From the IMG/VR virus record IMGVR_UViG_3300009180_002437: 64,000 bases of DNA; one strand, 5' to 3'. The position numbers were made by a program, and so were the translations under genes. The notes beneath the pieces were generated by a model. That model did not search any database and was not told the origin of the DNA. It worked only from the letters and a program-made list of their open reading frames with translations. The stretch is from a virus. Its lineage: Duplodnaviria > Heunggongvirae > Uroviricota > Caudoviricetes. Below are positions 3,980 through 61,441 of this stretch, piece after piece. Within the stretch, counting starts at the first letter, position 1; each line of letters begins with the position of its first letter.

Positions 3980-5920
3980 ATGAAAATACACGAAATTACC
4001 TTGTTATTCGAGGGTTATCCCCAAGCTCAAGATGCTTTTATTCAGCAATCGGGCGGTGATACTGCATCAGTACAAAAAACTATCGCCGACTTTCGTCAGT
4101 TGGTGAATAGAAATCAGATCAAAGACACAAACCAAAAGAATATCGATTGGTGGGCCAAACAGGGCTGGGATAAGTTCAATGCTTTTGTCAATCAGGCATC
4201 AGCAATACCCAGCAAGACGCAAATGACCAGAAAGAAAATACCTGGGCAAAGCATCAACTTGGTGGATGATGCTCAGTGGCTCATCGTTGTGCCACTGGAC
4301 AAGGAAGCCAGCTGTTTTCATGGAAGAAACAGCAGTTGGTGTACTACTAAAGTTCATCAGGAACATTTTGAAAATTACTTCTACAACAATGAAGTAACCT
4401 TGATATATTGCTTTAATAAAGCCACTGGTGGTATGTGGGCTATAGCGGCACATAAAAGAACAGATCGCATGGAAATGTTTACACAACAAGATGCATCAAT
4501 ATCGGCAGAACAATTTACACAACTGACTGGTCTAGATCCTCAACAGTTACGATCCATGGCTCTGGGTGACGTTCATCAACCTGCAGTACAGGCATCCAGA
4601 GATCAATGGAAGGAATCTGTAGCATTGACAAAACAATTGATGGCTACAATGCCACGCGGCACCAGATCGGCAGAAATAGAAAAGCAATTGGAGTATAATA
4701 AAGTAGGGGGATTATGCTTTGATTATATCTACCGATTTCAGTCAATTGAATCCAAAGACTTTCCGTTGTCGATACAGATATCGGCAATTAACAAAAATGG
4801 TGCCGTATTGGACCGAATCAATAATCCTGTTCAAGCTGTGCAACTGGCAGCAGTCAAGAAGGAAAATCTTGGGTTGAAAACCATCATTGCTCATGGAGCC
4901 AAGCCCAATGAAGCCGTACAACTGGCAGCAGTCACACAACACGGTCCTGCTATAGGTTTCCTGAAAGCCGCCGGCATCACTCCCAGCGAGGCTGTTCAAA
5001 TGGCAGCAGTAAATCAGAGCGGTACTGCTATACATTCCATCATATCGAATGGTATCGTGCCCAGTGATGAGGTGCAAATAGCAGCAGTAACTCAGAATCC
5101 AGAAGCAATAAAATTCATAATCACAGATTTGGGCACTGAGCCAAGTCATGCTGTGCAAATGGCAGCAGTCAAACGTTACGGCGGAACGTTTCGAATGTTG
5201 ATGAATCATGGAATTGTTCCCAGCAAAGACGTTCAAGAAGAAGCAATAGCCAGGGACGGCCTTAGTATACAATATTTGAAAAATCCCAATGAGAGATTAC
5301 AATTGGCCGCAGTTAGCAATGTTGGCAGGGCTATATTGTTTATTCTCCGGGCCGGCATCAGACCAAGTCACGCGGTGCAATTGGCAGCAGTGACGCAGGA
5401 TGGGCTGGCACTCGATTATATCTTACAGGATAAAATTAAACCAGAGTATGATGTGCTATTAGCAGCAGTGACCCAGGATGGCCGTGCCATTGAATATATC
5501 CAAAATCCCGACGAGCGATTACAGATAGCCGCAGCCAAGAGAAATAGTGGTGCATTAAAACTTTTAATGAAAGCTGGAATAACCCCCAGTTATGCCGTAC
5601 AGATGGCGTCAGTTACTCATGATCCCTGGTCTATAAAATATTTGAAAAATCCCGATGAGAGATTACAATTGGCCGCAGTCAACAATCATGGTGGTGCATT
5701 ACATGAAATAATCAAATCTGGAATTCTTCCCAGCGAGGCGGTACAATTGGCCGCGGTCAAATCAAGCCCCATAGTATTACGTATGATCCAAAATCCCAGC
5801 ATGGCGGTTCGCGACGCTGCACACATAGCAGCACAAGAGAAAAAAGCTCAAGAGGATGCTGCTATAAACGCTGCCAGAGCTGCCAGAGCTGCTCAAGGTG
5901 CCCAAGCAGCACCGGCCTAA
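3980..5920 (+). CDS. repeat protein with about 13 tandem 26-27-aa repeats (DUF4116-like, AVQLAAVTQDG.AL.YI)
   Basis: A 646-aa ORF. Its C-terminal two thirds are periodic: VQLAAV[TK]Q.G.AI.[FY]I...GI.PS. No Shine-Dalgarno site was recognised. Confidence 0.55.
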   Translation: MKIHEITLLFEGYPQAQDAFIQQSGGDTASVQKTIADFRQLVNRNQIKDTNQKNIDWWAKQGWDKFNAFVNQASAIPSKTQMTRKKIPGQSINLVDDAQWLIVVPLDKEASCFHGRNSSWCTTKVHQEHFENYFYNNEVTLIYCFNKATGGMWAIAAHKRTDRMEMFTQQDASISAEQFTQLTGLDPQQLRSMALGDVHQPAVQASRDQWKESVALTKQLMATMPRGTRSAEIEKQLEYNKVGGLCFDYIYRFQSIESKDFPLSIQISAINKNGAVLDRINNPVQAVQLAAVKKENLGLKTIIAHGAKPNEAVQLAAVTQHGPAIGFLKAAGITPSEAVQMAAVNQSGTAIHSIISNGIVPSDEVQIAAVTQNPEAIKFIITDLGTEPSHAVQMAAVKRYGGTFRMLMNHGIVPSKDVQEEAIARDGLSIQYLKNPNERLQLAAVSNVGRAILFILRAGIRPSHAVQLAAVTQDGLALDYILQDKIKPEYDVLLAAVTQDGRAIEYIQNPDERLQIAAAKRNSGALKLLMKAGITPSYAVQMASVTHDPWSIKYLKNPDERLQLAAVNNHGGALHEIIKSGILPSEAVQLAAVKSSPIVLRMIQNPSMAVRDAAHIAAQEKKAQEDAAINAARAARAAQGAQAAPA

Positions 5921-7033: not shown

Positions 7034-7222
7034 ATGTCAACACATGAACAAATCGTAGCAGCTTACGAAAACTACTTGGCTGAAAATGCTAAGTTCAGCG
7101 ACAAAGGTGTTAAAGCCGCCGCCGCCCGTGCCAGAAAATCTCTACAGGAAATCGCCAAGGCTGTCAAAGTACGCCGTGCTGAGATCACCACAGAAAAAGA
7201 AGCACTGACTCCAGCGAAGTAA
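7034..7222 (+). CDS. small basic alpha-helical protein (possible DNA-binding)
   Basis: A 62-aa product, KAAAARARKSLQEIAKAVKVRRAE. Shine-Dalgarno site aaagga. Confidence 0.4.
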   Translation: MSTHEQIVAAYENYLAENAKFSDKGVKAAAARARKSLQEIAKAVKVRRAEITTEKEALTPAK

Positions 7223-8393: not shown

Positions 8394-8422
8394 TTGACAA
8401 TTAAATCCGCTGTTACTATAAT
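8394..8422 (+). promoter_or_regulatory. perfect consensus sigma70 promoter TTGACA-17-TATAAT; the downstream ATG sits at the predicted +1 (leaderless)
   Basis: TTGACA at 8394-8399 and TATAAT at 8417-8422. The ATG at 8429 lies only 6 nt after the -10 element. Confidence 0.6.
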
Positions 8423-8428
8423 AGCTTT

Positions 8429-8821
8429 ATGACAATGCATCTACTCCCCCCGCTGTATTCGACCACAGGCAAAAAGAAAGGTCGCTATAAATTCGCATCT
8501 GCTGAGCAAAAACAGCAAGCTGAAGCTAATAAGGAAGAGTGGCAGCGTAAACTAAATGAATTTAATCGACTATCACCCTCTGTAAGGACGTCAAAGAGCC
8601 CTATGCCCACACTAAGCAAATCGCTACCCCGTATTCCCACCAGCCGTCAAACAGCTCACATTGAGTCCCTAGTAACCACCTGGGGTCCTTGCCTTAAGGT
8701 AGAAGATATGCAGTACACTGGCAACAAAATTAAGGGCATTGGCACAATGCATAAATCAAATGCGGTGCCGGTATTCAGTGACGAAGAAGCTGTTGAAATT
8801 TCACAAATGCGGAGAGGCTAA
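8429..8821 (+). CDS. hypothetical basic protein (possibly translated from a leaderless mRNA)
   Basis: A 130-aa ORF with no Shine-Dalgarno site. Its start codon abuts the promoter -10 element. Confidence 0.4.
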   Translation: MTMHLLPPLYSTTGKKKGRYKFASAEQKQQAEANKEEWQRKLNEFNRLSPSVRTSKSPMPTLSKSLPRIPTSRQTAHIESLVTTWGPCLKVEDMQYTGNKIKGIGTMHKSNAVPVFSDEEAVEISQMRRG

Positions 8822-8822
8822 G

Positions 8823-9272
8823 ATGAGCGTAACAGATAATACAACCGATTTATTTACAACTTTATTTGATTTTGATTCGACCAGTGAGCTTTTGAAGACT
8901 AAACCAACTGCACCTCGCCCAACATGTGTAAATCATGGATGTAGTAAGCCAGTTGCATCGGATGGTAAGCGTTGGCGTATTCATTGCGGACATTGCCAAG
9001 GTGCAAGTTACGGAAGAAACCCTCACGCAGCCGGAGTTACCCCATTAAAAACAGGTATTTGTTCAAATATTGATGGACATTTAGGATTTCCCTGTGTGAT
9101 AGACTGGAAAAAAGTTCCAGAATTTGCTAAAGGCATGACTGAAATTGACCATATTGACGGCAATCATTTGAATAATTCTATTAGCAACCTTAAAGAACTA
9201 TGTCCCATTTGTCATAAACTTAAAGGACAACGAGCCGGCGATTTTAAACGCGGTAGATACACACATAAATAA
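8823..9272 (+). CDS. HNH endonuclease
   Basis: HNH motif HIDGNHLNNSISNLKELCPICH plus upstream Cys/His pairs. Shine-Dalgarno site GGAGAGG. Confidence 0.65.
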   Translation: MSVTDNTTDLFTTLFDFDSTSELLKTKPTAPRPTCVNHGCSKPVASDGKRWRIHCGHCQGASYGRNPHAAGVTPLKTGICSNIDGHLGFPCVIDWKKVPEFAKGMTEIDHIDGNHLNNSISNLKELCPICHKLKGQRAGDFKRGRYTHK

Positions 9273-9301: not shown

Positions 9302-9523
9302 TTGAGTAAATCAGATGATGTAATTAAAATGGAGGGTGTAATCACCGAAGTATTACGAAACACGAATTATCGTGTTAAAATTGAAAACATTGAAAATCCC
9401 ATTCTCGCTACACTAAGCGGGAGAATACGCCAAAATAATATCAAAGTACTTACAGGCGACAGAGTACAGTTAGATATATCACCCTACGACCTATCTCGTG
9501 GTAGAATTACACGTAGGCTATGA
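9302..9523 (+). CDS. infA: translation initiation factor IF-1 homolog (S1-like OB fold)
   Basis: The 73-aa product aligns along its length with bacterial IF-1 (GVITEVLRNTNYRVKIENIENPILATLSGRIRQNNIKVLTGDRVQLDISPYDLSRGRITRR). It uses a TTG start, with AGGAG upstream. Confidence 0.7.
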   Translation: MSKSDDVIKMEGVITEVLRNTNYRVKIENIENPILATLSGRIRQNNIKVLTGDRVQLDISPYDLSRGRITRRL

Positions 9524-10083
9524 TTTTAATAAATACCTACATGAGAGATTTATTAAACTTAGTGGAAGCAGCAACCGTTTCAGCTAAACTGGAAACTACC
9601 CCACTACCCTACGCACATAAAGATCTGGCTCCCATAATGAGCGCAGACACAATAGAATACCACTACGAGCACCTGGCTAAAGGCTACGCTAAAAAGTACA
9701 ATGCCGGCGAAGGTGATGCCGATTTCAACCGTGCTGGCAGCTTCTTACACAACAAATTCTTTCCCCAATTGCAAGCACCAAAAGGTGCCAACCGTCCCAA
9801 GGGTGCGGTGCTAGAACTCATTGAAGCTAACTTCAAAACTTACGAAGATTTCAAGGTAGCGTTCAAAGAAGCTGCCATGAAGATTCAGGGATCGGGTTGG
9901 GTTTATCTCAGCACAGGTGGAACTATTAAAACCATACGAAATCATCAGGTTCGTACCGATATTTGTGTACTGGTTGACTGGTGGGAACATTCATGGTCGA
10001 CGGATTACAAGTGGGATAAAGAAAAGTATCTAGATAATATCTGGAAAATTATCAACTGGAACGTATGTTCGGAGAGAATATGA
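9520..10083 (+). CDS. sodB: Fe/Mn superoxide dismutase-like protein
   Basis: [21 protein letters not shown] aligns with the SodB N-terminus, the GSGWVYL block is present, and D-WWEH matches the Asp/His metal-ligand motif D-xWEHAYY. His residues sit at the ligand positions. Confidence 0.65.
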
Positions 10084-10406
10084 TCACACTAACTGAAAAC
10101 GCCGCGATTAAAATTAAAGATTTATTAGCAGAAGAAAACAATCCCAAGCTAAAACTTCGTGTATTCGTTCAGGGCGGCGGATGCAGTGGAATGCAGACAG
10201 GCTTTACCATGGATGAAGAACAAGCTGACGATGACTGGGAGGTCGAAGTCAATGGCGTTCATTTGTTAGTAGATAGTATGAGTAGTAATTATTTAAAAGG
10301 TTCAACCGTGGATTATCGCGATGATATCAATGGATCTGCCTTTGTTATCACTGGCATGGAAGCCACAACGACATGTGGCTGTGGTAGTAGTTTTTCACCA
10401 TATTAA
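10080..10406 (+). CDS. erpA: A-type Fe-S cluster carrier (IscA/ErpA/HesB family)
   Basis: [24 protein letters not shown] ... C-terminal TCGCGSSF, matching ErpA end to end. ATGA overlap with the SOD-like gene. Confidence 0.75.
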
Positions 10407-10463: not shown

Positions 10464-11885
10464 ATGTCGCAACAAATTATTAATGTAGGTACGGCGCCCA
10501 ACGATGGTTTGGGAACTCCAATACGTACTGCTTTTCAGTACACAAATAATAACTTCACGCAACTGTTTTCGTTGCCGAATCCTACACCCCCAACTACCCT
10601 AGTGGGCAAAGCGGGCGATGTCCCGGGTATGTATGCATACAGCGCGGCATATTTTTACTACTGTTTTGGAACTTATGATGGTTCCACTGTTATTTGGGCA
10701 CAGATTGCCCAGGGTAATACCTCAATCTCAAATATCGTTAATGGCACTAGTAATGTAAGAATCGGTAGTGCCAATGCCAATGTAACCGTGGGAGTAAACG
10801 GTACAGCAAATATTGCAGTTTTCAGTAATACTGGAGTATCAGTAACTGGTAATATTAGAACCTCTGGACAAATAACAGCCACTGGTAATGTATATGGTAA
10901 TGCCATTGTCGGCACTTACTTGTACGGAGATGGCAGCAATATTAGTAACATATCAGGTGGCGGGAATTACAGTAATACCAATGCAGCAGCATATCTACAG
11001 GTACTAACTTCAAATGTATCAACAACTGGCAACATAACCGGAAGTTATATTTTAGGCAATGGTAGAAATTTAACTGGATTACCGTTAACCTATGGCAATG
11101 CTAACGTTGCTAACTTTTTACCAGTATTTACTGGTAACATATTATCAAGTAATATGACCGCTACTGGAAACGTGCATGCCGGAAATATTAAAACGGTGGG
11201 AATAGTTTCAGCAACAGGAAACATCACTACTGACGGATATTTTATTGGCAATTTCGTTGGGAACATATCAGGTAACTTAGTAGTGCCTGGATCGAATACT
11301 CAAGTACTTTATAATGATAATGGAAATGCTGGAGCAAGCGCCGGGTTAATATTTAACTCTGCATCAAACATTTTATCAGTAACGGGAAATGTGTATGGCA
11401 ATTATTTTCTTGGTAACGGTAGTCAATTAACAGGGTTACCAGTTACGTATGGCAATGCCAATGTGGCTGCTTATCTACCAACTTATACCGGCAACATAAC
11501 AGCAGGTAATATCAGTACCACTGGAAATATAACAGCTAGCTATATTTTAGGTAATGGTAGTCAATTAACTGGCATCGCCGCCACCGGCATAAATGCAAAC
11601 GCACTAACTGGATCTACCTTATCAAGCAATGTTACTACCAGCAGCTTGACTTCTGTTGGTACTTTGGCAAATTTAAGTGTAACCGGCAATGTAGTGGCAT
11701 CTGGGGTAGTGACTTCTACCGGCACATTTAGATTGCCTAGTTATACTACCGCACAAATTGCCAACATATCAGCGGTAGAAGGAGATATGGTTTATAATTC
11801 AACTGTACAACAAATACAAGCATATCAAGCAAATGCCACAGGTAACGTAACATGGGTAAGTTTAAGTGTGTCTACTTACCAGTAA
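10464..11885 (+). CDS. tail fibre protein built of Phage_fiber_2-like repeats
   Basis: Many copies of a repeat about 30 aa long: ...TGN[IV]...YILGNGSQLTGLP.TYGNANVA.YLP.YTGNI. Confidence 0.6.
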   Translation: MSQQIINVGTAPNDGLGTPIRTAFQYTNNNFTQLFSLPNPTPPTTLVGKAGDVPGMYAYSAAYFYYCFGTYDGSTVIWAQIAQGNTSISNIVNGTSNVRIGSANANVTVGVNGTANIAVFSNTGVSVTGNIRTSGQITATGNVYGNAIVGTYLYGDGSNISNISGGGNYSNTNAAAYLQVLTSNVSTTGNITGSYILGNGRNLTGLPLTYGNANVANFLPVFTGNILSSNMTATGNVHAGNIKTVGIVSATGNITTDGYFIGNFVGNISGNLVVPGSNTQVLYNDNGNAGASAGLIFNSASNILSVTGNVYGNYFLGNGSQLTGLPVTYGNANVAAYLPTYTGNITAGNISTTGNITASYILGNGSQLTGIAATGINANALTGSTLSSNVTTSSLTSVGTLANLSVTGNVVASGVVTSTGTFRLPSYTTAQIANISAVEGDMVYNSTVQQIQAYQANATGNVTWVSLSVSTYQ

Positions 11886-11896
11886 TGGAGTAACTT

Positions 11897-14638
11897 ATGA
11901 CAGCACAGCCTATTTGGATTACTCCCCCTGGTAGTTTAGGTACTGTACCAGAAGGTGCTTACTACGAAGTACCACTGCGTGTTACCGATACGTTTACCAC
12001 TGACCTCATAGGTATCGTGGGTAGTGGATCTTCAGTCACAGCTACATTTTATACTCAGACAGTATCCATGTTCCAACCTGGTGATACTGTTGTGGTCACT
12101 GGAGTTAACCCGTCATCTTATAACGGTAGCTTTATAGTAACCAAATGTACCACTACACAAATTACATATACGAGTTCGGCTACCGGTACTTGGATCGGTG
12201 GCGGTACTATCACTTCCGTGCCATCGACTGTATATTTTGAATCTATTGCTGGCGCATTACCCGATGGTATTGAATGCACGACATCTGGCGTACTACAGGG
12301 TACTCCTACCAATGTGGTTACAGTGGCAGATGAAGCATTGGTAGTGGGAGTCAATGTTACCAGTAAATTTGCTATTAGGGCCTATACAACCAAAACAGTT
12401 GGTGGCATTACTGTCATTAATAGATTAGCCGATAGAACATTTACTATAACGGTCGCTGGGCAAAATCTACCCAGTTGGATCACACCTGCGGGCGAACTTA
12501 GTCAGCTATGGGTAGGTGAATTGTTGTCCCCAGGTATACAATTAGATTATACTACTGATAATACAACTGGAATTCCGCCGGCTATCAGCTTGTATTCGGG
12601 GAGTTTGCCCCCGGGAATTACAGTTAGTGATACTGGCTTAATTTCTGGATTTGTTGGCTTAAATCCAACAACATCTGCTCAACCTGGATTCAGTGTTAAC
12701 GGTCAAGGATTTAGTACATACCCATTTGATTTTGATATAGAAGCACAAAATTCCACATATACATTTACACTACAGGTTACTGATGGTCGAATATCTGCAT
12801 TACGAGAATTTAGCCTATTCGTATGGAGTACTGAGGCATTTACTGCTGACACTACCTTGATCACAGCTGATAACACCTATCTAACAGCCAGCATATCCAG
12901 TGTTAATACCCCAGTGATAACAAACCCTCAGGGATCTATTGGCACCACATACAGCAATACATATTTTGCTTACCAATTTGTGGGGAAGAATATTACCGGA
13001 GACACTATAGGGTATACTGGTGCTTCGTTACCCACAGGGTTAACACTTAATTCAACAACTGGATGGTTAACCGGATACTTACCTACAATTGGGCTATTCG
13101 AATCTACTTTTGATTTTACAGTAACCGCATACCTAACCAACTCGCCATCAGTGACTAGTGATCCATATGATTTTAGCCTGACAGTTGAAGGACCTATATT
13201 CTCCAATGTGACCTGGCTCACACCCTCCAACTTGGGCACCATTGCCAATGGGTCCACCAGTATATTTTATGTTGAGGCGACCAATACTACTAACACAAAT
13301 TTACAGTATCAATTAGTATCAGGATCAGATTCAAAATTACCGCAGGGATTAACTCTATTGCCATCAGGTAATATTGCTGGGCGTGTAAGTTTTAATGCAT
13401 ACCCCACCCCCGCTCAGTATGGTAGCACAGTATACACCTTTACAGTAAACGCTTACAGTACTAATGGATTTATCAGTGTTAATAAAACGTTCTCCATCAC
13501 GGTGGAGCGTGTCTACGAGACACCTTATCAAAACTTGTATATCCAATGTATGCCGCCGGTTGATGATCGAGAATTGATTGCTAGTTTACTGCAAAATTCT
13601 ACTATCTTTACTCCGTCACTACTATATCGTCCCGATGATACTAACTTTGGATTGAGTCGCAATGTCGTGTATCATCATGCATATGGATTAAATGCTGCCA
13701 GCGTGGATACCTATGTATCCTCACTTCAACTTAACCACTACTGGAAGAATTTACTCTTGGGAGAAATTAAAACAGCACAAGCTGTCGACCCTTTAACAGG
13801 TAATGTAGTGTACGAAGTAGTATATTCGGAAATCATAGATAGCTTAGTCAACAATGACAATCTAAGTGTTGGCAAAGAAGTGGTGCTGGCCTATCCAATA
13901 GAAGAGCAAACAATTGATGTAGTGTACCCTAATTCGCTTGATAACATGAGAGATCAGGTAATTGACGTAGTGGGACAGGAGAGTGACCTGTTACCGTTAT
14001 GGATGCAGAGTTCCCAAGCAGATGGTAAAGTTTTAGGGTTTATCCCAGCATGGGTAATTGCATATACAATACCAGGGGCGTCGGGGCAGATACAATACAA
14101 TATACAGACACAGTTTGGAATCCAATTAAATCTAGTGGATTTTGTAGCCGATCGGTATGAGCTTGATAACGCTCTTACAGTTAACTGGGATGGCAACACA
14201 CAAAGTTGGGTACCAAGCCCACCGGAGACGACATCATTTGACATCAATTACCACTATAATGTCACTATAGGCACAGCAGGCAATGTATACCTAGCGGGTG
14301 ATCAAATTAAGATCTTAGGCTCGTCACTGGGCGGGGTAACTCCTGCTAATGATTTACTCATAACGGTCAATACTGTAAATACCAATGGTGCCATCCTTGA
14401 TGCATTCTATTATGGTACTGCCAATAGCGCAGCGGCTGGTAATTCCTATGATAACTTAGCCGGGGTAAATGTAGTTGGTCCAGGCACTGGGGCCACTTGG
14501 GATATTACTGTAGTACCAGGAGTCGAAACTGTATTTGACGGGGGAAGCGTTACCTTTATTGCTCCAGCAGATACAGATACCAGCTCCACTGCTAACGACA
14601 AATACTTGTTGTATCCCAAATACAATATATTAGTTTAA
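11897..14638 (+). CDS. large virion structural protein (tail fibre or baseplate; repeated Ig-like 'ITP[PA]G.LG' modules)
   Basis: A 913-aa protein, Thr/Ser/Gly-rich and beta-rich, with repeated WITPPGSLGTV / WITPAGELSQLW / WLTPSNLGTI module starts. Confidence 0.5.
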   Translation: MTAQPIWITPPGSLGTVPEGAYYEVPLRVTDTFTTDLIGIVGSGSSVTATFYTQTVSMFQPGDTVVVTGVNPSSYNGSFIVTKCTTTQITYTSSATGTWIGGGTITSVPSTVYFESIAGALPDGIECTTSGVLQGTPTNVVTVADEALVVGVNVTSKFAIRAYTTKTVGGITVINRLADRTFTITVAGQNLPSWITPAGELSQLWVGELLSPGIQLDYTTDNTTGIPPAISLYSGSLPPGITVSDTGLISGFVGLNPTTSAQPGFSVNGQGFSTYPFDFDIEAQNSTYTFTLQVTDGRISALREFSLFVWSTEAFTADTTLITADNTYLTASISSVNTPVITNPQGSIGTTYSNTYFAYQFVGKNITGDTIGYTGASLPTGLTLNSTTGWLTGYLPTIGLFESTFDFTVTAYLTNSPSVTSDPYDFSLTVEGPIFSNVTWLTPSNLGTIANGSTSIFYVEATNTTNTNLQYQLVSGSDSKLPQGLTLLPSGNIAGRVSFNAYPTPAQYGSTVYTFTVNAYSTNGFISVNKTFSITVERVYETPYQNLYIQCMPPVDDRELIASLLQNSTIFTPSLLYRPDDTNFGLSRNVVYHHAYGLNAASVDTYVSSLQLNHYWKNLLLGEIKTAQAVDPLTGNVVYEVVYSEIIDSLVNNDNLSVGKEVVLAYPIEEQTIDVVYPNSLDNMRDQVIDVVGQESDLLPLWMQSSQADGKVLGFIPAWVIAYTIPGASGQIQYNIQTQFGIQLNLVDFVADRYELDNALTVNWDGNTQSWVPSPPETTSFDINYHYNVTIGTAGNVYLAGDQIKILGSSLGGVTPANDLLITVNTVNTNGAILDAFYYGTANSAAAGNSYDNLAGVNVVGPGTGATWDITVVPGVETVFDGGSVTFIAPADTDTSSTANDKYLLYPKYNILV

Positions 14639-24341: not shown

Positions 24342-24370
24342 TTGACATAAATATCGTTTTACTATACAAT
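24342..24370 (+). promoter_or_regulatory. sigma70-type promoter TTGACA-17-TACAAT
   Basis: TTGACA at 24342-24347 and TACAAT at 24365-24370. Confidence 0.5.
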
Positions 24371-24402
24371 ACACCCATGACTATCTTATACCCTGTTACC
24401 AT

Positions 24403-25200
24403 ATGAGTAATCCTTACGATACACTGGGCGTGCCTAAAAACGCCACTACTGACGAAATTAAAAAGGCTTACCGCAAGTTGGCTAGTCAACATCATCCTGA
24501 CAAAGGTGGCGATACCAAAAAATTCCAAGACATACAAACAGCTTACGAGACACTGGGTGACGAACAAAAACGTGCTCAGTATGATAGACCACAGCCGCAA
24601 GGTGTGCATTTTGAATTTGGTGGACCGGGAGGATTCGATCTCGGTAGTATATTCAATATGTTCGGGGCGAAGGGATTTCAAAATCATCCTCCTGGTCAGC
24701 CACCAAGACAACAGCACACACGCATGAGCTTGTGGATTACCTTATCAGACATTGCATCGGGCGGAAAACGTACAGTAGCCATTGGCGGTAGCCACGGTAG
24801 TATGAACATTGAAATCGAAATCCCCATGGGTATCAATGATGGAGACAATGTTCAGTATGGAGGAATTGGTCCGGGAAATACGGATCTAATTATTAACTTC
24901 CGTATTCATCCTCACCCCAAATGGCAACGTAATGGATTGACACTAATTGCCGAACAAACGGTATCCATCTGGGACTGTTTAGTAGGCGGTGAAACAATTG
25001 TAAAAGATTTACTGAATAATCAATATACTATTAGTGTTCCCCCATTAACTCAACCAGGGAGTTTATTAAGATTAAAAGACAAAGGGTTGCGTAACAGGCA
25101 AGGTCAGTCCGGAGATCTACTGATTAGGATTCAGGCTAAAATGCCAGAATCTATCAGCCAAGAGCTATCGGAACTGATTAAAGAGCAGCAGGAAAAATAG
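24403..25200 (+). CDS. DnaJ-like co-chaperone (J domain plus DnaJ C-terminal-like domain, no zinc finger)
   Basis: J-domain DTLGVPKNATTDEIKKAYRKLASQHHPDKGG with the HPD motif, and a C-terminal beta-rich domain. Confidence 0.65.
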   Translation: MSNPYDTLGVPKNATTDEIKKAYRKLASQHHPDKGGDTKKFQDIQTAYETLGDEQKRAQYDRPQPQGVHFEFGGPGGFDLGSIFNMFGAKGFQNHPPGQPPRQQHTRMSLWITLSDIASGGKRTVAIGGSHGSMNIEIEIPMGINDGDNVQYGGIGPGNTDLIINFRIHPHPKWQRNGLTLIAEQTVSIWDCLVGGETIVKDLLNNQYTISVPPLTQPGSLLRLKDKGLRNRQGQSGDLLIRIQAKMPESISQELSELIKEQQEK

Positions 25201-25209
25201 TCTTATCAC

Positions 25210-25238
25210 TTGTATTTAAAATATTTTTACTATATACT
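25210..25238 (+). promoter_or_regulatory. sigma70-type promoter TTGTAT-17-TATACT
   Basis: TTGTAT at 25210-25215 and TATACT at 25233-25238. Confidence 0.45.
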
Positions 25239-25263
25239 ATAACGGTACTGGATAAAGGATACC

Positions 25264-27543
25264 ATGCAAAACAACAAAGAAATTGAAGCAATTGTAGGGC
25301 AGGCGGTTTCGATTGCTCGGATTAAACATCACGAGTATGTGCTAACCGAACATATATTATTGGCCTTAATACGCCACATTCCTTTCCGCAAAGTACTGGA
25401 AGGATTCGGTACAAGTATTGCACTCATGGACGAGGAATTAGATGTCTATTTGGACAGTTTAACCAGTATAGTTACATCTAAGTCAGAATTTCAACCACGT
25501 AAAACTAACGCCCTTGAACGTTGTTTTAATCGGGCTATGACACAGGTGTTATTTACTGGCCGCCGTTCAGTAACCACATTTGATTTGTATCTTGCTATGA
25601 TGAGTGAGACAAACAGTCACGCACATTACTTCCTGATGAAGTATGGAGTTAAGAAAGCCGAGTTTATGGAATACTGGCAGCAAAATTATAAAGCTGAAGA
25701 TGCCGAGGTTAGTGCTTCTGAAGCTGATGCCATCTTAACTGAATTTTGTACAAACCTAACCAAAATGGCTACTGAAGATAAGTTAGAGCCAATGATTGGC
25801 CGCTCAGCTGAACTAGACGAAATCATTACTGTACTGGCTCGAAAGTTTAAAGCTAACGTACTAATGGTGGGCGATCCGGGTGTAGGCAAAACTGCCATCG
25901 CAGAAGGGCTTGCCCAGGAAATTGTAAACAACCGTGTACCCGCATTCCTTAACGGACATGAAGTATGGAGTTTGGAAATCGGCTCATTGTTAGCCGGCAG
26001 TAAGTATCGTGGCGAATTTGAGGAAAAGTTTAAACAGGTCATTGGTGCATTAGAAGCCAAGAAAAATTGTATCTTATTTGTTGATGAAGCACATACAATG
26101 AAAGGCGCTGGCGCAAGTTCACAATCATCACTAGACTTTGCTAATATGCTAAAGCCAGCTATTACCAAGGGTTATCTTAAGGTAATTGCGTCAACTACCT
26201 GGGAAGAATTCTATGAGTCATTTGAAAAGGATCGTGCGCTAATGCGTCGATTCCATCGTGTGTCCATTGACGAACCCACGCCAGAAGTAACGGAGCAAAT
26301 CTTAATCGGCTTATCACCTCGCTTGGAAAAATTCCACGATGTGTTGATTGATACTGATGCTATTAAAGCAGCAGTAGACTTGTCGGGTCGTTACATACAT
26401 GATCGCAAGAATCCAGATAAGTCAATTGACTTGCTAGACGGTGCATGTGCCAAGGAACGTGTTAAAGATATAGGCACTACTACTGTGACTAAAGACATGA
26501 TCATGGCACAGTTGAGTCGTATTACTGAGGTTCCCATGGATCGTTTACAAAACGAACGTTCGGCTAATATTGTGGAACTGGAAGGTAATATTAAACAGAA
26601 GTTGTATGGCCAAGACGAAGCTGTTAATTCGGTACTTGAGCGGGTATACATTAACTTCTCGGGTATTGGTAACGAAAACAAACCAATTGCCAGCTTCTTA
26701 TTCTTGGGACCAACTGGCACAGGTAAGACAGAATTGGCCAAGTTATTGGCTGAGCATTTAGATATGCAGTTGTTGAAATATGACATGAGTGAGTTCCAGG
26801 AGAAGCATACTGTTAGCTCATTGATTGGTGCTCCCCCAGGATACGTTGGGTTTGAAGATGGTAATGTGGGTGGTGGAAAACTTATTAGTGATGTCAGTAA
26901 GAACCCTTATTCAATCTTGTTGTTTGATGAAATTGAAAAGGCACATCCGGATGTAGTTAACCTTATGTTGCAAATGTTGGATGAAGCTCGCATCACCAGT
27001 GCCAATGGTAAAACTGTTAACCTGAAGAACTGCATCATTATTATGACCAGTAACTTAGGTGCTCGCGACAATGAGAATAACAACATTGGCTTTGGGCAGA
27101 CACTGGAAAAGACAGGATCAGAACACAAGGCAATGAAGGATTTCTTTAAACCTGAATTACGTAATCGTATTGATCAAATCTGTCGCTTTAAGAAACTAGA
27201 TACACTGGCTGTTAAGAAAATTGTTGTTAAATTTGTTGATCAACTACAAACCAGTTTAAGCACAAAGAATATTCGTCTTAACTTATCCGAGCCAGTAATC
27301 GACATGCTGGTTGAAAAAGGCTATGATAACAAGATGGGTGCTCGACCATTAAATCGTAAGATTGATGAACTTATTCGCGTACCATTGAGTAAGAAAATTC
27401 TCTTTGAACGATTAAGTGACTGTGTAATTACAGCGGACATGGTTAATGATCAAATTGACTTTATCATCATACCTAATCCCGCATTAGCTATTGTCGACAA
27501 CTCAGGAATTATTTTACTTGATGGCGAATCTTCCACCGTTTAA
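25264..27543 (+). CDS. clpA: ClpA-like AAA+ unfoldase (two AAA modules, N-domain, IGF ClpP-docking loop)
   Basis: Walker A GDPGVGKTAIAEGLAQ and FLGPTGTGKTELAKLLA. The N-domain is ClpA-like. NIGFGQ sits at the position of the ClpA IGL loop. Confidence 0.8.
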   Translation: MQNNKEIEAIVGQAVSIARIKHHEYVLTEHILLALIRHIPFRKVLEGFGTSIALMDEELDVYLDSLTSIVTSKSEFQPRKTNALERCFNRAMTQVLFTGRRSVTTFDLYLAMMSETNSHAHYFLMKYGVKKAEFMEYWQQNYKAEDAEVSASEADAILTEFCTNLTKMATEDKLEPMIGRSAELDEIITVLARKFKANVLMVGDPGVGKTAIAEGLAQEIVNNRVPAFLNGHEVWSLEIGSLLAGSKYRGEFEEKFKQVIGALEAKKNCILFVDEAHTMKGAGASSQSSLDFANMLKPAITKGYLKVIASTTWEEFYESFEKDRALMRRFHRVSIDEPTPEVTEQILIGLSPRLEKFHDVLIDTDAIKAAVDLSGRYIHDRKNPDKSIDLLDGACAKERVKDIGTTTVTKDMIMAQLSRITEVPMDRLQNERSANIVELEGNIKQKLYGQDEAVNSVLERVYINFSGIGNENKPIASFLFLGPTGTGKTELAKLLAEHLDMQLLKYDMSEFQEKHTVSSLIGAPPGYVGFEDGNVGGGKLISDVSKNPYSILLFDEIEKAHPDVVNLMLQMLDEARITSANGKTVNLKNCIIIMTSNLGARDNENNNIGFGQTLEKTGSEHKAMKDFFKPELRNRIDQICRFKKLDTLAVKKIVVKFVDQLQTSLSTKNIRLNLSEPVIDMLVEKGYDNKMGARPLNRKIDELIRVPLSKKILFERLSDCVITADMVNDQIDFIIIPNPALAIVDNSGIILLDGESSTV

Positions 27544-39687: not shown

Positions 39688-42348
39688 GTGAGTTATGTAG
39701 ACGCATTATATTCCCGCGACGCGGATCGTATACATATTGTAGAACGTGTTGATGGTAAAAGAGTATACAAAGAATATCCAGCCAATCACATATTTTATTA
39801 TGATGATCCCCGTGGTAAGTTCCAGTCAATATATGGAACTTCTGTGGCTCGTTTCTCCAGCCGGAACTTAAAAGAGTTTCGTAGGGAAGTGGCGGTGCAA
39901 AAAGGTCGGCAACTTTACGAATCCGATATTAACCCCGTGTTCCGTTGTCTGGAAGAAAACTATAAAGACAAAGATGCGCCAACACTACACGCAGCGTTTT
40001 TCGATATTGAGGTAGACTTCCACAAAGAACGAGGATACAGTCCTACGTCAGATCCATTTAATGCTATTACCGCAATATCAGTCTATCTGCAATGGATAGA
40101 TCAATTGGTCACCTTGGTTATTCCACCAAAACACATGAGCATGGAGACAGCACAGGAGATAGCATCGGAATTTGAAAACACTATTGTATTTGATAGTGAG
40201 GAGGAGATGCTAAAAACTTTCCTGGATCTAATTGAAGATGCAGATGTACTGTCAGGTTGGAATAGCGAGGGCTATGATATTCCCTACACAGTGAATCGTA
40301 TTACTCGTGTGTTGAGTAAGGACGACACTCGTAGGTTCTGTCTTTGGGGACAATATCCCAAGCCACGCGACTACGAACGCTATGGCACTACCAGCACAAC
40401 ATATGATTTAATTGGGCGGGTACATTTGGATTATATGCAGTTGTATATACAATATACATATGAGGAACGACATAGTTATAGTCTGGATGCTATTGCTGAG
40501 TATGAGTTAAACGAACACAAGACACAATACGAAGGAACACTGGATCAACTGTATAATCAAAACTTTAAAAAGTTTATTGAATATAACAGACAGGATACAA
40601 TGATCCTGAATAAACTTGACACCAAGTTACGCTTCTTGGACCTAGCCAATGAACTAGCACACGCTAACACAGTAACTCTGCAGAAGACCATGAGTGCAGT
40701 GGCGGTGACGGAACAGGCTATTATCAATGAAGCACATGAGCGTGGATTGGTCGTTCCCAATAAGAAACAACGATTACACGATGAGGATACTGCCGCGGCG
40801 GCAGGTGCTTATGTTGCGTATCCTAAAAAAGGTATACACGAATGGATTGGTGCTGTGGATATTAACAGTCTGTATCCATCAGCTATTCGTGCGTTGAATA
40901 TGGGAATGGAAACGGTAATTGGTCAATTACGTCCGGTAATGACCGATCGATATCTTGATGATCTTATCAGTCAGGGAAAATCTGCAACAGCAGCATGGGA
41001 AGGTATATTTGCATCGTTAGAATATACTGCGGTGATGGAACAGCAACGCGGTACTGAGATCACTGTAGACTGGCAGAATGGTGAGAAGTCCGTACACTCG
41101 GCTGCTGAGATCTGGAACATGGTGTTTAACAGTAACCAACCCTGGATACTGACTGCTAATGGTACCATTGTCACTTATGAGCGCAAGGGTGTTGTCCCGG
41201 GACTGCTGGAGCGGTGGTATGCTGAACGTAAAGAACTACAGGCCAAGAAGAAAGCAGCTACCGATCCAAAAGAAATAGCATTTTGGGATAAGCGTCAGTT
41301 GGTTAAGAAAATTAACCTAAACAGCTTATATGGTGCTATTCTTAATCAACATTGTCGGTTCTTTGACAAGCGTATTGGACAGTCAACTACGCTGACTGGT
41401 CGTAGTATTGCTCGTCATATGGCCGGTCATATCAATGAATGTATCATGGGTGTTAAGGATCATGTAGGCGAAGCCATCGTATATGGTGATACAGACTCAT
41501 GTTACTTTACTGCTTGGCCCGCGATTAAAGACGACGTAGCTAAGGGCGCAATGACCTGGAACAAGGACATGTGTATACAGTTATATGATAATATTGCTGA
41601 TCAAGTTAACGAATCATTTCCAGCATTTATGGAACAGGCATTCCACTGCCCGCGAGAGATGGGCGAACTGATCAAAGCAGGGCGCGAGCTGGTGGCATCT
41701 AACAGTTTGTTTATTACCAAGAAACGCTATGCTGTGTTGATCTATGACCTTGAAGGTAAACGATTGGATACCGATGGTAATCCTGGAAAGATTAAGGCCA
41801 TGGGATTGGATCTAAAAAGATCAGATACTCCTAAAGTGGTGCAGGAGTTCTTGTATGAGATTCTGGAAAAGGTCTTGACGGGTACATCACGTGATGATAT
41901 TATTGAAAGAATACGAGAATTTAAATATGCGTTTAAAGATAGACCAGCTTGGGAAAAAGGCACTCCTAAACGTGTTAACAATCTAACTACATACACCAAG
42001 AAAGAAGAAGCTGCGGGTAAGGCTAATCTTCCCGGTCATGTTCGTGCAGCATTAAATTGGAATAATCTGCGCAGAATGAACAGCGACAAATATAGTATGC
42101 AGATCGTTGATGGTATGAAAACTGTGGTGTGCAAACTAAAGGCTAATCCACTAGGTTGGACTAGTATTGGTTATCCTACAGATGAACAACGCTTGCCCGA
42201 ATGGTTTAAGGAATTGCCATTTGACCACAGTTTAATGGAAGCCACAATTGTAGATCAAAAGATCGATAACCTGCTAAGTGTACTAAACTGGGATCTAGCA
42301 AGTGCCACTAACACAGAAAATACTTTCCAATCACTATTTGAGTTTTAA
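39688..42348 (+). CDS. family-B DNA polymerase with 3'-5' exonuclease domain
   Basis: Exo I FFDIEVDF and Exo II YNRQDTMIL. Pol motif A DINSLYPSAI, motif B KINLNSLYGAI, motif C YGDTDS. GTG start immediately after the upstream TAA. Confidence 0.85.
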   Translation: MSYVDALYSRDADRIHIVERVDGKRVYKEYPANHIFYYDDPRGKFQSIYGTSVARFSSRNLKEFRREVAVQKGRQLYESDINPVFRCLEENYKDKDAPTLHAAFFDIEVDFHKERGYSPTSDPFNAITAISVYLQWIDQLVTLVIPPKHMSMETAQEIASEFENTIVFDSEEEMLKTFLDLIEDADVLSGWNSEGYDIPYTVNRITRVLSKDDTRRFCLWGQYPKPRDYERYGTTSTTYDLIGRVHLDYMQLYIQYTYEERHSYSLDAIAEYELNEHKTQYEGTLDQLYNQNFKKFIEYNRQDTMILNKLDTKLRFLDLANELAHANTVTLQKTMSAVAVTEQAIINEAHERGLVVPNKKQRLHDEDTAAAAGAYVAYPKKGIHEWIGAVDINSLYPSAIRALNMGMETVIGQLRPVMTDRYLDDLISQGKSATAAWEGIFASLEYTAVMEQQRGTEITVDWQNGEKSVHSAAEIWNMVFNSNQPWILTANGTIVTYERKGVVPGLLERWYAERKELQAKKKAATDPKEIAFWDKRQLVKKINLNSLYGAILNQHCRFFDKRIGQSTTLTGRSIARHMAGHINECIMGVKDHVGEAIVYGDTDSCYFTAWPAIKDDVAKGAMTWNKDMCIQLYDNIADQVNESFPAFMEQAFHCPREMGELIKAGRELVASNSLFITKKRYAVLIYDLEGKRLDTDGNPGKIKAMGLDLKRSDTPKVVQEFLYEILEKVLTGTSRDDIIERIREFKYAFKDRPAWEKGTPKRVNNLTTYTKKEEAAGKANLPGHVRAALNWNNLRRMNSDKYSMQIVDGMKTVVCKLKANPLGWTSIGYPTDEQRLPEWFKELPFDHSLMEATIVDQKIDNLLSVLNWDLASATNTENTFQSLFEF

Positions 42349-51493: not shown

Positions 51494-52186
51494 ATGGCGG
51501 GATACTTAGGTGACAGCATTCGTCGCAGAATGCAAGCAGATGGTAAGAGATTTTGGGCCGGCGACAACATCAGTGACTACGTTACTGAAGAAGATAAAAG
51601 GATTCTAATTAACGAAGCCACAGAGGCGTTCGAAACTGTACTAGAAAGTCTATTGATCGACATTGACGCTGATCCCAATAGTCAAGGCACAGCGCATAGA
51701 TTGGCCAAAATGTATTTTAACGAAATTATGGCAGGCAGATATGAGCCTGCCCCAGATTGTACAGCGTTTCCAAATGATTCGGAGAATAGATATGAAGGTA
51801 TGTTGGTCGTGCGCAGTGAGTTGCGTAGTATGTGCAGTCACCACCATCAGCCTGTTACTGGTGTTGCCTACATTGGAATCCTTGCCGCAAATAAACTTAT
51901 CGGGCTATCTAAGTATACTAGGATTGCTCAGTGGTGTGCTCGCCGTGGTACTCTGCAGGAAGAGCTCTGTAACGACATCGCCCGAGAAATAATGCGAGCA
52001 ACCGACAGTGAGGATGTGGGTGTTTATATTCAAGCCATACACGGCTGCTGCGAAAATCGCGGAATTATGGCACACAGTAGTTTAACACAGACTACAGTAT
52101 TGAAAGGTGCGTTCAAGGAACACATGGATACAAAGAAGGAATTCTTTGATAATATTAAACTACAACAAGACTTTGCCCCACGATAG
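51494..52186 (+). CDS. folE: GTP cyclohydrolase I
   Basis: MCSHHHQPVTGVAYIGI...GLSKYTRIAQWCARRGTLQEEL aligns with the FolE CEHH/GLSK/R-QE active-site block. Confidence 0.75.
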   Translation: MAGYLGDSIRRRMQADGKRFWAGDNISDYVTEEDKRILINEATEAFETVLESLLIDIDADPNSQGTAHRLAKMYFNEIMAGRYEPAPDCTAFPNDSENRYEGMLVVRSELRSMCSHHHQPVTGVAYIGILAANKLIGLSKYTRIAQWCARRGTLQEELCNDIAREIMRATDSEDVGVYIQAIHGCCENRGIMAHSSLTQTTVLKGAFKEHMDTKKEFFDNIKLQQDFAPR

Positions 52187-53639: not shown

Positions 53640-54284
53640 ATGGCAAATAACCCCCACCAGCAAGCACTAAGTGATTACTTCGATGCTCGCATCAATCATT
53701 ATCATCACACAAAATCTGGTAACACAGTAGGGCCAGTCTTGCAAAAAAGTCTAGCAGATAACGTAGAGCAGGCATTGAGTAGCGTGCCATCAACTGTGCA
53801 ATACAAGTACACCAGTACAAAAGAATATCACGACGCTTTTCCCTGCGCCTACAGACAGTGGCGAGCAGATAGCCACTGTAATTTAATACATGGCTACAGC
53901 TTTAGTATGAAGTTTTACTTTGGCACCAACGACCTGGATGTACGCAACTGGGCAGCAGACTACGGTGGACTCAAAGAGCTAAAAGACACACTAGAAGATC
54001 AGTTTGATCATACATTGCTAGTAGCAGAAGATGATCCAGAACTGGAGACATTTAAACTGCTGCAATCTAAGAACATGGCCAAGCTGACTATTTTGCCACG
54101 TTTAGGTTGTGAAGGATTAGCTGACATGCTGTACCGGTATGTTAATGGCGTTTATATTCCTGACATGTGGGGAACGGCAGAAGCAGATAGACTTTGGTGC
54201 TATCGTGTAGAAGTACGCGAAACACAAAGCAATATGGCTTACAGAGAAGGACATAGAGAATGGCATGAGGATTTATTAATATGA
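53640..54284 (+). CDS. queD: QueD-like 6-carboxytetrahydropterin synthase (PTPS/T-fold) with an N-terminal extension
   Basis: SHCNLIHGYSFSMKFYFG and DYGGLKELKDTLEDQFDHTLL parallel the QueD blocks KCGRLHGHSF.V.LEI and DFAELK...LDHHYL. The second zinc His of HGH is replaced by Tyr. Confidence 0.5.
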   Translation: MANNPHQQALSDYFDARINHYHHTKSGNTVGPVLQKSLADNVEQALSSVPSTVQYKYTSTKEYHDAFPCAYRQWRADSHCNLIHGYSFSMKFYFGTNDLDVRNWAADYGGLKELKDTLEDQFDHTLLVAEDDPELETFKLLQSKNMAKLTILPRLGCEGLADMLYRYVNGVYIPDMWGTAEADRLWCYRVEVRETQSNMAYREGHREWHEDLLI

Positions 54285-56703: not shown

Positions 56704-57107
56704 AATATTATAATGTCGCAATTAACACCGAGCCCGGACTAGGCTCATTCCAAGACGATCGTGGATCTATCGTAGATATCTTTTATAAAAAGGCCATCAA
56801 TCACGGATGTATCATTAGTAATAATCCCGGTGCCGTTCGTGGTAATCACTATCATAATCATACTGTACAGTATACCTATGTTATTGCAGGTGACCTAACT
56901 TATTACTCACAACCAGCAGACAAATCCGAACCAGTATCCACTTACGTGGCAGTTACTGGAGACGTCATTATCAGTGATCCCAAAGAAATTCATGCTATGA
57001 AAGCTGGTGAGTTTGGATGTGTTTTTATAGCCTTTGCCGAAGGCCCACGTGGTGGCGAAGATTACGAAACAGATACAGTAAGAGTTGATTCTATTATTCC
57101 TGAATGA
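56700..57107 (+). CDS. cupin-fold sugar 3,4-ketoisomerase (FdtA/WxcM-like)
   Basis: DDRGSIVDIFYKK ... AVRGNHYHNH matches FdtA E-RGS...RG-H-H. Confidence 0.55.
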   Translation: MKYYNVAINTEPGLGSFQDDRGSIVDIFYKKAINHGCIISNNPGAVRGNHYHNHTVQYTYVIAGDLTYYSQPADKSEPVSTYVAVTGDVIISDPKEIHAMKAGEFGCVFIAFAEGPRGGEDYETDTVRVDSIIPE

Positions 57108-61269: not shown

Positions 61270-61441
61270 TATGTGTTATACTTATAGACATGACTATGGG
61301 CTCGAAAAACCTACTGGAGATAACTTTGCTAGTAAGTTATCATCAGGCACCACACAGGCAGAGCGCGAATCACTATGGCGTCAAATGGCGCAGATATTTG
61401 ATAACGATATATTACCACATATGGAATTTAAAAATGAGTAA
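61241..61441 (+). CDS. hypothetical protein
   Basis: A 66-aa ORF. Confidence 0.3.
   Translation: MKTREQIITSMCYTYRHDYGLEKPTGDNFASKLSSGTTQAERESLWRQMAQIFDNDILPHMEFKNE

Follow-up and report, generated by a model that had tools for sequence, protein, structure and literature searches.

An operon of IF-1, superoxide dismutase and ErpA homologues

A stretch of 64,000 nucleotides (nt) from the viral record IMGVR_UViG_3300009180_002437, referred to hereafter as the window, was examined for the relationships and probable roles of three consecutive plus-strand genes at 9302–10406. The first (9302–9523) starts with TTG and encodes a homologue of translation initiation factor 1 (IF-1, infA) of 73 amino acids (aa). 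The second (9520–10083) encodes a superoxide dismutase (SOD)-like protein of 187 aa, and the third (10080–10406), which starts with ATG, an A-type iron–sulphur (Fe-S) cluster carrier of the ErpA type (108 aa). The original prediction, made from the DNA letters alone, had proposed three head-to-tail genes here. Its open reading frame (ORF) positions were exact and both proposed stop/start overlaps are present, each as an ATGA, at 9520–9523 between the IF-1 and SOD genes and at 10080–10083 between the SOD and ErpA genes. Its three family assignments were likewise confirmed when a hidden Markov model (HMM) search was run, which returned IF-1, Fe/Mn SOD and ErpA. The ErpA start is the family-conserved ATG at 10080; an upstream ATG at 10065 of the window is not where relatives begin.

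Upstream of the trio, a consensus sigma-70-type promoter (TTGACA-17-TATAAT, plus strand, 12/12 match) lies at 8394–8422. It is followed by the first gene of the operon (8429–8821, plus strand), whose 130-aa product, p130, matches phrog_27048 in the PHROG collection (2.5e-27), and by an HNH endonuclease gene (8823–9272, plus strand) with Pfam HNH and HNH_3 matches. No terminator-like site was found on the plus strand between 8822 and 10666. With overlapping stop and start codons and no terminator between them, the three genes are predicted to form a translationally coupled operon.

The SOD and ErpA genes form a tight pair with IF-1 as a looser neighbour

Gene order was compared in 80 related loci, and synteny was counted where at least 3 kb of flank was available; counts over related loci overstate the number of independent events. 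The order was cell-wall hydrolase, p130, IF-1, SOD, ErpA and a tail-fibre-like gene. The IF-1 gene lay upstream of the SOD gene in 53/53 loci, the ErpA gene lay downstream in 50/54, and all three were present in 37 of the 39 loci with coverage of either flank. Relative to the window proteins, median identity was 79% for SOD, 68% for IF-1 and 65% for ErpA. As judged from aligned sequences, all three genes are under purifying selection, with pairwise dN/dS values of 0.07–0.16 that are rough because dS is near saturation; SOD had the lowest value of the trio (0.07) and ErpA stood at 0.16.

The 4-nt ATGA overlap between the SOD and ErpA genes was retained in 38/49 loci, whereas the gap between the IF-1 and SOD genes was −4 nt in seven loci, 7–10 nt in 25 and 121–2407 nt in 21. 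The SOD and ErpA genes are thus a tight pair, with IF-1 as a constant but looser neighbour. The coupling originally proposed for all three genes therefore extends to relatives for SOD and ErpA, but the IF-1 gene is only loosely linked to the SOD gene. No Rfam family was found in the 2.4-kb gaps of loci L010 and L051, which are free of plus-strand ORFs; the L051 gap has genes on the opposite strand. Adjacency of IF-1 and SOD genes is not confined to the window's clade, because loci L140–L143 show it with a second, divergent IF-1 lineage (∼4780–5000; 48% identity, motif KAKIR, G65A) whose gene precedes a short SOD gene by 22 nt. The L140–L143 loci yielded no A-type carrier.

The HNH gene has a counterpart between the p130 and IF-1 genes only in contigs identical to the window and in L007–L010 (30–42% identity). 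In 27 relatives the same slot instead holds a WYL_2 (Sm-like SH3) gene, and the HNH gene is a lineage-specific insertion. HNH genes also split the SOD–ErpA pair in L080 and sit between the SOD and carrier genes in L148.

Such insertions bear on whether the three genes belong together at all. They could be unrelated cargo of a hypervariable accessory island between the cell-wall hydrolase and tail-fibre-like genes, their adjacency being a matter of history. The hydrolase-to-tail-fibre interval of relatives does hold dozens of different inserts, including HNH endonucleases, WYL_2 genes and unknowns; the distance from IF-1 to SOD ranges from −4 to 2407 nt, and Sinorhizobium phage Phosso carries an IF-1 gene without SOD or ErpA genes. 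We nevertheless regard this explanation as rather improbable. The trio are the fixed anchors of the island in 37/39 loci, the SOD–ErpA overlap persists in 38/49, and pairing of an SOD gene with an A-type carrier gene recurs at 40% SOD identity, with other carrier types and with IscU or SufE genes in between.

A short-hairpin SOD family with conserved metal ligands

The SOD-like protein matched Sod_Fe_C (PF02777) over profile positions 1–102 of 102 (3.8e-20; 72.3 bits, cutoff 20.9), but Sod_Fe_N (PF00081) with 29 bits only, at positions 5–48 of 82. Against the SodA and SodB equivalogs of NCBIfam its best score was 81 bits (cutoff 348). When 38 short and canonical SODs were aligned, the invariant columns were H48, Y56, H77, G124, G126, W127, D153, E156, H157 and W180. 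These include the four metal ligands (H48, H77, D153 and H157), the gateway Tyr56 (canonical Tyr34) and the bridging Glu156. The four ligand motifs, together with the short spacing described below, were found in 50/50 unique SODs from loci collected with a distant short SOD, P0131, as the seed. The proposal that this protein keeps its His/Asp/His ligands was thus correct for all four residues (His/His/Asp/His), but it had overlooked the truncation of the N-terminal domain. The first and second His ligands are 25–29 residues apart (29 in the window SOD), compared with 45–55 in canonical enzymes, and the hairpin is ∼18 residues shorter. In place of a full-length N-terminal two-helix hairpin domain, the model has a short hairpin with helices at residues 42–61 and 67–83.

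Loss of the second His ligand was considered and ruled out. In a MAFFT alignment, and in one HMMER alignment to Fe-SOD, His77 was set one column off because of the adjacent deletion. The short-family sequence FNxAGxxLHxxFF fits the Mn/archaeal-type FNxxGHxLHxxFW without gaps, the motif H-x-x-F-[FW] is present, and the column is invariant.

An AlphaFold2 model of the SOD was obtained with high confidence (predicted local distance difference test score 95.8; predicted template-modelling (TM) score 0.86). A Foldseek search with it returned 259 PDB matches at E ≤ 0.001, of which the best 50 were all SODs (TM 0.73–0.81); the top match was the cambialistic SOD of Aeropyrum pernix (3AK2). The protein is predicted to resemble Fe/Mn SODs of solved structure in its two-domain fold (TM 0.77–0.81), and shares with them the four ligands, gateway Tyr, bridging Glu and GSGW motif. 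As we read the alignments, an N-H motif in the C-terminal domain lies about where archaeal-type SODs place their second-sphere His. It differs from canonical Fe/Mn SODs in its shortened hairpin, in the replacement of His30 by Leu and in an extra N-terminal helix. A few short SODs retain a His at +4 from the first ligand. The extra helix (residues 3–19; window 9520–9576) is amphipathic, conserved (pattern D/N-I-R-x-x-I-x-L-x-E) and specific to the short-hairpin family; it may make up for the truncation of the hairpin or serve in docking.

In IMG/VR, 225 relatives of the SOD were found, on contigs of up to 344 kb, and every short SOD that was traced sits on a phage or phage-like contig. A scan of cellular genomes gave two contigs only, L089 (NZ_JBBAKG010000049.1) and L090 (NZ_JBBAKG010000036.1), both from one Haliscomenobacter metagenome-assembled genome (MAG). 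They represent two different phages of the family, each with the full hydrolase–p130–SOD–ErpA synteny, and a cellular short SOD was accordingly rejected; we read the contigs as misbinned phage sequence or a weak host hint. The closest named homologues, EST35_0261 of phage PA5oct and NVP2275O_049 of Vibrio phage 2.275.O, are 37–40% identical to the window protein. Since the PA5oct homologue was found with electrospray ionization tandem mass spectrometry of purified particles (PMC7318152), at least one member of the short family is made. Among P0121–P0127 and P0189, some short SODs bear unrelated C-terminal extensions of 80–200 aa, and one short SOD ends a 631-aa protein. SOD–ErpA fusions were suspected among the longer P0121–P0127, but their C-terminal extensions proved unrelated to ErpA.

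Loss of His30, truncation of the hairpin and the unexplained conservation of the N-terminal helix might mean that the SOD fold no longer serves catalysis. The protein would then be a structural or regulatory subunit comparable to PAP4/FSD3, an Fe-SOD-like protein that serves in the plastid RNA polymerase, and might have some link to translation factors. The PDB sequence matches of the short SOD include PAP4/FSD3 chains. In four lineages the short SOD gene is near translation-initiation genes: IF-1 in the window's clade and in L140–L143, IF-3 with bS21 in Vibrio phage 2.275.O, and bS21 in PA5oct. We consider a non-catalytic role very improbable, as invariance of the four ligands, Tyr56, Glu156 and Trp127 over deep divergence would be unexpected were catalysis dispensable.

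Short SOD genes often lie beside Fe-S biogenesis and radical SAM genes

The carrier scored 152.9 bits against the ErpA model NF010147 (cutoff 117), while the IscA and SufA models were far below their cutoffs. Its three Cys ligands (GGGCSG ... CGCGSSF) are invariant in 57 distinct family sequences, so the CGCGSSF ending read from the window at the outset holds for the family as a whole, and the start codon is ATG in 76/76 relatives. The window protein shares 52% identity with E. coli ErpA, a value suggestive of descent from Proteobacteria, and matches the class I A-type carrier HI1723 of Haemophilus influenzae (2APN) with 119 bits. In E. coli, ErpA is the aerobic last-step carrier that meets apo-targets; it is essential for aerobic growth and repressed by IscR and RyhB (PMC8593673). 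Unlike the E. coli gene, the window gene is phage-encoded, stands behind a sigma-70 promoter and overlaps an SOD gene. No host-type control of the phage gene was obvious, no search for IscR sites having been made.

In relatives, the DNA inserted between the IF-1 and ErpA genes amounts to 52 kb. It was screened, alongside 679 kb outside this span, for ORFs of at least 200 aa with the CxxxCxxC motif of radical S-adenosylmethionine (SAM) enzymes. Such ORFs made up 14/53 inside and 10/248 outside (Fisher P = 3e-6, which is indicative only, the loci being related), and nine of the ten outside lay 1.5–4 kb upstream of the IF-1 gene. At least eight types of radical SAM protein were represented; six scored above the cutoff of NF033640 (twitch-domain, with an extra cluster) and two resembled B12-binding radical SAM enzymes. 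By our tally, radical SAM genes occur in or beside the cluster in ∼21 loci of relatives.

A second scan, seeded with P0131, yielded 80 loci whose SODs are 40–99% identical to it. An A-type carrier was encoded on the locus for 45 of the 56 distinct short-SOD alleles, 350–1200 nt downstream of the SOD gene where mapped. An IscU gene (NifU_N, 178 bits) stood between the SOD and carrier genes in 24 of the alleles; SufE was encoded in seven, and in three loci examined in detail its gene (96 bits) had the same intermediate position. Several loci in which no carrier was detected had radical SAM/SPASM genes directly after the SOD gene. The carrier of L100, a locus of the P0131 cluster with an SOD of 189 aa, shares only 40% identity with the window ErpA and belongs to a type other than ErpA. 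On these sequences, the SOD–carrier pairing either survives deep divergence or arose more than once.

These neighbourhoods bear on the possibility that the SOD is a general antioxidant for the infected cell, or virion cargo acting at entry, with no tie to Fe-S clusters, the ErpA gene being an independent metabolic gene. The PA5oct homologue, present in purified particles (PMC7318152), has no adjacent A-type carrier gene. Elsewhere a canonical SOD domain lies within a 1337-aa protein, P0267, which has several unrelated-looking segments and was read as a polyvalent phage protein, and the window's trio abuts tail-fibre-like genes. An Fe-S biogenesis or client gene nevertheless adjoins the short SOD gene in most lineages sampled, the SOD–ErpA overlap is conserved and predicts translational coupling, and the consensus sigma-70 promoter would fit early expression. 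A purely antioxidant or virion role is therefore unlikely in our judgement.

An IF-1 variant with an altered decoding-base pocket

As originally claimed, the IF-1 homologue aligns essentially full length with bacterial IF-1: the Pfam profile eIF-1a (PF01176) was covered at positions 1–64 of 64 (1.5e-18), and residues 5–72 scored 93.4 bits against TIGR00008 (infA; cutoff 61.15). The residues following the TTG codon match the bacterial MAKED N-terminus. Start codons among 82 relatives were TTG in 48, ATG in 31 and GTG in three. An AGGAG box lies 13 nt ahead of the TTG at 9302, a long spacing. Like bacterial InfA and the IF1 of huge phages (Al-Shayeb et al., 2020; PMC7162821), the protein is a full-length single OB domain of 72–73 aa, and it is ∼50% identical to bacterial IF-1 proteins of solved structure. 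It differs from bacterial InfA in having N-N-I-K in place of N-[YF]-I-R, in the TTG start common among relatives, and in the position of its gene in an operon with Fe-S-related rather than translation genes. Phage IF-1 had been called rare. It was found in 35 of 50,697 phage records, several of them host contamination, which agrees with that view, but IF-1 in huge phages has already been reported (PMC7162821). Word-indexed protein searches with IF-1 and with ErpA returned only members of the phage clade among the best 120 matches, and cellular donors were not placed.

Contacts of IF-1 with the 30S subunit (530 loop, h44 and uS12) are made by K2, P18, R23, G38, R41, R46, Y60, D61, R64 and R66 (PMC10913371; bioRxiv 10.1101/2023.10.27.564398). 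In 174 distinct sequences of the phage family, K2 (where the N-terminus was present), R23, G38, R41, Y60, D61 and R66 were invariant and R64 was kept in 171/174. The changed positions were R46K (174/174), Y44N (169/174) and P18R (132/174, including the window). The motif SG[RK]xRxNNIK accordingly replaces N-[YF]-I-R in 112 of 120 cluster representatives. Loss of conserved Arg/Tyr ribosome contacts, named in the original prediction as the result that would count against an IF-1 assignment, was thus seen in part (R46K and Y44N), while Y60 and the other Arg residues were kept. On these alignments, binding to the 30S A site is most probably preserved, with the base pocket remodelled.

Other phage IF-1 proteins also alter positions 44 and 46: Phosso has NNIN, LR756508 HNIN, DAC19 and Lak phages NYIK, and L140–L143 AKIR. 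Because Phosso and the window phage share a polymerase lineage, the common pattern may be partly inherited and not convergent.

The same substitutions raise the question of whether the protein helps initiation. It might instead compete for the A site and so shut off or re-bias host translation, or act as an RNA chaperone of the S1/CspA kind. R46K, Y44N and P18R fall within or next to the contacts to h44 and A1493, residues 44 and 46 are also replaced in Phosso (NNIN), LR756508 (HNIN) and L140 (AKIR), and in cold shock a higher ratio of initiation factors to ribosomes biases translation (PMC6511846). The pairwise dN/dS of 0.13 is consistent with either a helper or a competitor. Since R46K is a conservative change, the remaining 30S contacts examined are invariant or nearly so, and the score exceeds the equivalog cutoff, such departures from an initiation-helper role seem doubtful.

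A sigma-70 promoter and a probably leaderless first gene

Promoters of the form TTGACA-17-TATAAT with at most one mismatch numbered eight in the window, against 1.05 expected. They span 925–59390, seven are on the plus strand, and those that were read stand just before ORFs. This excess suggests heavy use of the host sigma-70 polymerase. A near-consensus promoter is present at the place of the 8394 promoter in 30/52 distinct relatives, among which the string TATAAT-AGTAGT-ATG recurs. It is probably this promoter that drives the trio's operon, hence by means of host RNA polymerase, and expression is probably early.

The p130 ATG begins 6 nt past the −10 hexamer and has no Shine–Dalgarno sequence; because this string is also conserved in relatives, the p130 mRNA is probably leaderless. 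Leaderless transcripts had been suggested for the window, with IF-1 supporting their translation. The first gene of the operon partly supports the former suggestion but not a tie to IF-1, and the analysis gave no evidence of a connection between IF-1 and the translation of leaderless mRNAs. IF2 and 70S ribosomes favour initiation on such mRNAs, whereas IF3, with the assistance of IF1, opposes it, and such a role for IF-1 is for this reason not supported. Elsewhere in the window, the near-consensus promoter at 24342–24370 is followed after 6 nt by a nine-codon mini-ORF (24377–24406), whose stop overlaps the dnaJ start at 24403 by ATGA. It may represent an upstream ORF, leaderless and coupled to dnaJ.

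The phage, its QueE-like gene and other genes of the window

A near-identity DNA search against isolate phages gave no match, and the closest relatives are all metagenomic. The same genes occur on metagenomic contigs of several samples of the Joint Genome Institute (JGI), which we take to be freshwater lake samples. The family-B DNA polymerase (39688–42348) is closest to those of Sinorhizobium phage Phosso (50%) and Agrobacterium phage Atu_ph07 (46%), followed by Vibrio phage 2.275.O and Rak2-like phages (42% each). Because of this polymerase kinship, and of related contigs reaching 344 kb, the source is classed from its sequence as an uncultured jumbo phage of the T4 superfamily. Host hints are weak: the type of ErpA points to Proteobacteria, the MAG bin to Haliscomenobacter.

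A radical SAM gene for QueE had been predicted downstream and named as a client of the SOD–ErpA pair. A QueE-like gene is indeed present at 61290–62276 (plus strand), but its match is weak (58 bits against the NCBIfam QueE cutoff of 260; 19 bits with Pfam Radical_SAM) and its Cys pattern atypical (CX3C...C, that is CNFTC with the third Cys ∼34 residues on). The protein probably starts at the internal Met48. Together with FolE (51494–52186) and a QueD-like gene (53640–54284) it suggests 7-deazaguanine modification. It is the only candidate for a phage-encoded Fe-S client seen in the window.

Genes for DnaJ and a 759-aa ClpA/ClpB-like ATPase lie within 24403–27543, and one for a Bax1-I/YccA-like membrane protein at 60201–60905. 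This set parallels the block of ClpX, ClpS, FtsH and an FtsH-interacting protein around the short SOD of PA5oct. More broadly, the window's gene set is similar to those of PA5oct and Vibrio phage 2.275.O, where Clp, bS21, IF-3 and Que genes surround the short SOD gene. A tblastn search of the window gave no IscU, SufE or bS21, the small ORFs scanned ahead of the cluster gave no Pfam ribosomal-protein or IF-3 match, and a search of the window for tRNA genes was likewise negative.

Just upstream of the operon, at 7034–7222, is an Hc1 histone H1-like gene (62-aa product; Pfam 1.2e-11). Directly after the cluster, 10464–14638 encodes two large proteins, 473 and 913 aa long and rich in TGNI/GNxxxxNG-type repeats, with a weak match to He_PIG. 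Tail fibres are their probable identity, and only their N-terminal ∼80 aa are conserved across many relatives. A sugar-nucleotide run at 54647–59365 (methyltransferase, cupin, epimerase/dehydratase and UDP-glucose dehydrogenase-like genes) may serve modification of DNA or of surface glycans.

Discussion

We propose, with a probability of roughly 0.6, that this jumbo-phage operon combines a minimal Fe-S maintenance module, SOD plus ErpA, with an IF-1 that raises or replaces IF-1 activity. The trio would be host-derived auxiliary genes in two functional units, SOD–ErpA and IF-1. SOD and ErpA would be translated as a coupled pair; SOD would clear superoxide, which destroys exposed [4Fe-4S] clusters, while ErpA, as the last-step carrier, would hand clusters to apo-proteins and, being expressed from the phage, would escape repression by IscR and RyhB of the host. 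The clients could be radical SAM enzymes of the phage, QueE-like in the window and twitch-domain in relatives, and host Fe-S enzymes needed in aerobic infection. The IF-1 homologue would bind the 30S A site and raise or replace IF-1 activity in infection, with R46K and Y44N altering the pocket that takes up A1493, the flipped-out decoding base. The enzyme activities, the clients, the early timing and the effects on translation are what we infer here from the conserved genes and residues, their selection and order, and their enriched neighbourhoods. Comparison with relatives strongly supports the original suggestion that SOD and ErpA protect or build Fe-S enzymes, while the client named for the window is weak and 51 kb away.

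Several observations weigh against this proposal. There is no radical SAM gene inside the window's own cluster, the sole candidate client being the weak QueE-like match 51 kb off; the neighbourhood statistics are phylogenetically non-independent; and the short SODs of PA5oct and Vibrio phage 2.275.O have no A-type carrier gene nearby. In relatives the IF-1 gene may lie up to 2.4 kb from the SOD gene. The window SOD and most short members carry Leu for the second-sphere His30 (H-x-x-x-L-x-x-x-Y), a loss which, with the truncated hairpin, could leave SOD activity reduced or altered. In the IF-1 family R46, conserved in all three domains of life and touching A1493, is Lys; the aromatic residue 44 is gone, and the window protein has also lost P18. 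The roles given to the SOD, ErpA and IF-1 families are inferred from sequence, predicted structure and neighbourhoods.

A stronger form of the Fe-S proposal is that the SOD, instead of scavenging in bulk, is a dedicated, phage-specific subunit of an Fe-S assembly and delivery machine, docking on the A-type carrier or IscU, perhaps through its N-terminal helix, and shielding nascent clusters from superoxide where they are transferred. This is a speculative extension that we think unlikely. If it held, jumbo phages could run oxygen-sensitive radical SAM chemistry in aerobic hosts, and the neighbouring IF-1, IF-3 and bS21 genes would hint that some of these radical SAM enzymes act on the translation apparatus.

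Viral Fe-S genes have precedents. According to Nishimura et al. (2017; PMC5332604), T4-like marine viral genomes carry an A-type carrier, IscU and up to 12 radical SAM genes, and the viral assembly proteins were proposed to serve viral Fe-S proteins; erpA and iscU genes are likewise described in HMO-2011-type phages (PMC9038755). The present set resembles these in joining a carrier (and, in related lineages, IscU) with phage radical SAM genes and in the role proposed, the supply of clusters to Fe-S proteins of virus and host. A carrier or scaffold together with radical SAM genes, the mark of a viral Fe-S module, is found in relatives of the window phage; in the window the weak QueE-like gene is the sole candidate partner. 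The window's clade differs in having the short-hairpin SOD as a conserved upstream partner, of which no mention was found in the text available of either paper. Unlike the published viral sets, the module in this clade is reduced to SOD–ErpA with an ATGA overlap and stands beside an IF-1 gene. Its logic also resembles oxidation-resistant Fe-S delivery by ErpA/NfuA in E. coli (Py et al., 2018, as outlined in PMC8593673), where a last-step carrier likewise has a partner limiting oxidative cluster loss. This is analogy, not homology: the partner here is a putative superoxide-removing enzyme, whereas in ErpA/NfuA it is a second carrier, and physical interaction of SOD with ErpA is hypothetical.

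Publications already cover IF-1 in phages, A-type carrier and IscU genes in viruses, and the association of these viral carrier and scaffold genes with radical SAM genes. The novelty is modest and lies in a short-hairpin SOD that is confined to phages and regularly accompanies genes of Fe-S biogenesis. Our literature searches gave nothing specific on this trio or on a truncated phage SOD, and no prior description was found of the short-hairpin subfamily, of its regular placement ahead of phage genes for IscU, SufE or an A-type carrier, of a fixed R46K/Y44N IF-1, or of initiation-factor genes near the short SOD in four lineages.

No current view is overturned by these findings; they extend what is known of Fe-S auxiliary genes in viruses and of translation genes in huge phages. 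As a naturally minimized Fe/Mn SOD, the short-hairpin protein is of use for enzymology and protein design, and aerobic hosts given a two-gene SOD–ErpA cassette could become better at expressing heterologous radical SAM enzymes. The IF-1 variant, with its altered A1493 pocket, offers a natural mutant for the decoding-centre role of IF-1 and for phage bias of initiation. Large environmental phage contigs, in their hundreds, appear to encode a way of sustaining Fe-S enzymes in oxygen, and such upkeep would explain how these phages can maintain many radical SAM enzymes despite the oxygen sensitivity of the latter, for example for the modification of DNA or RNA.

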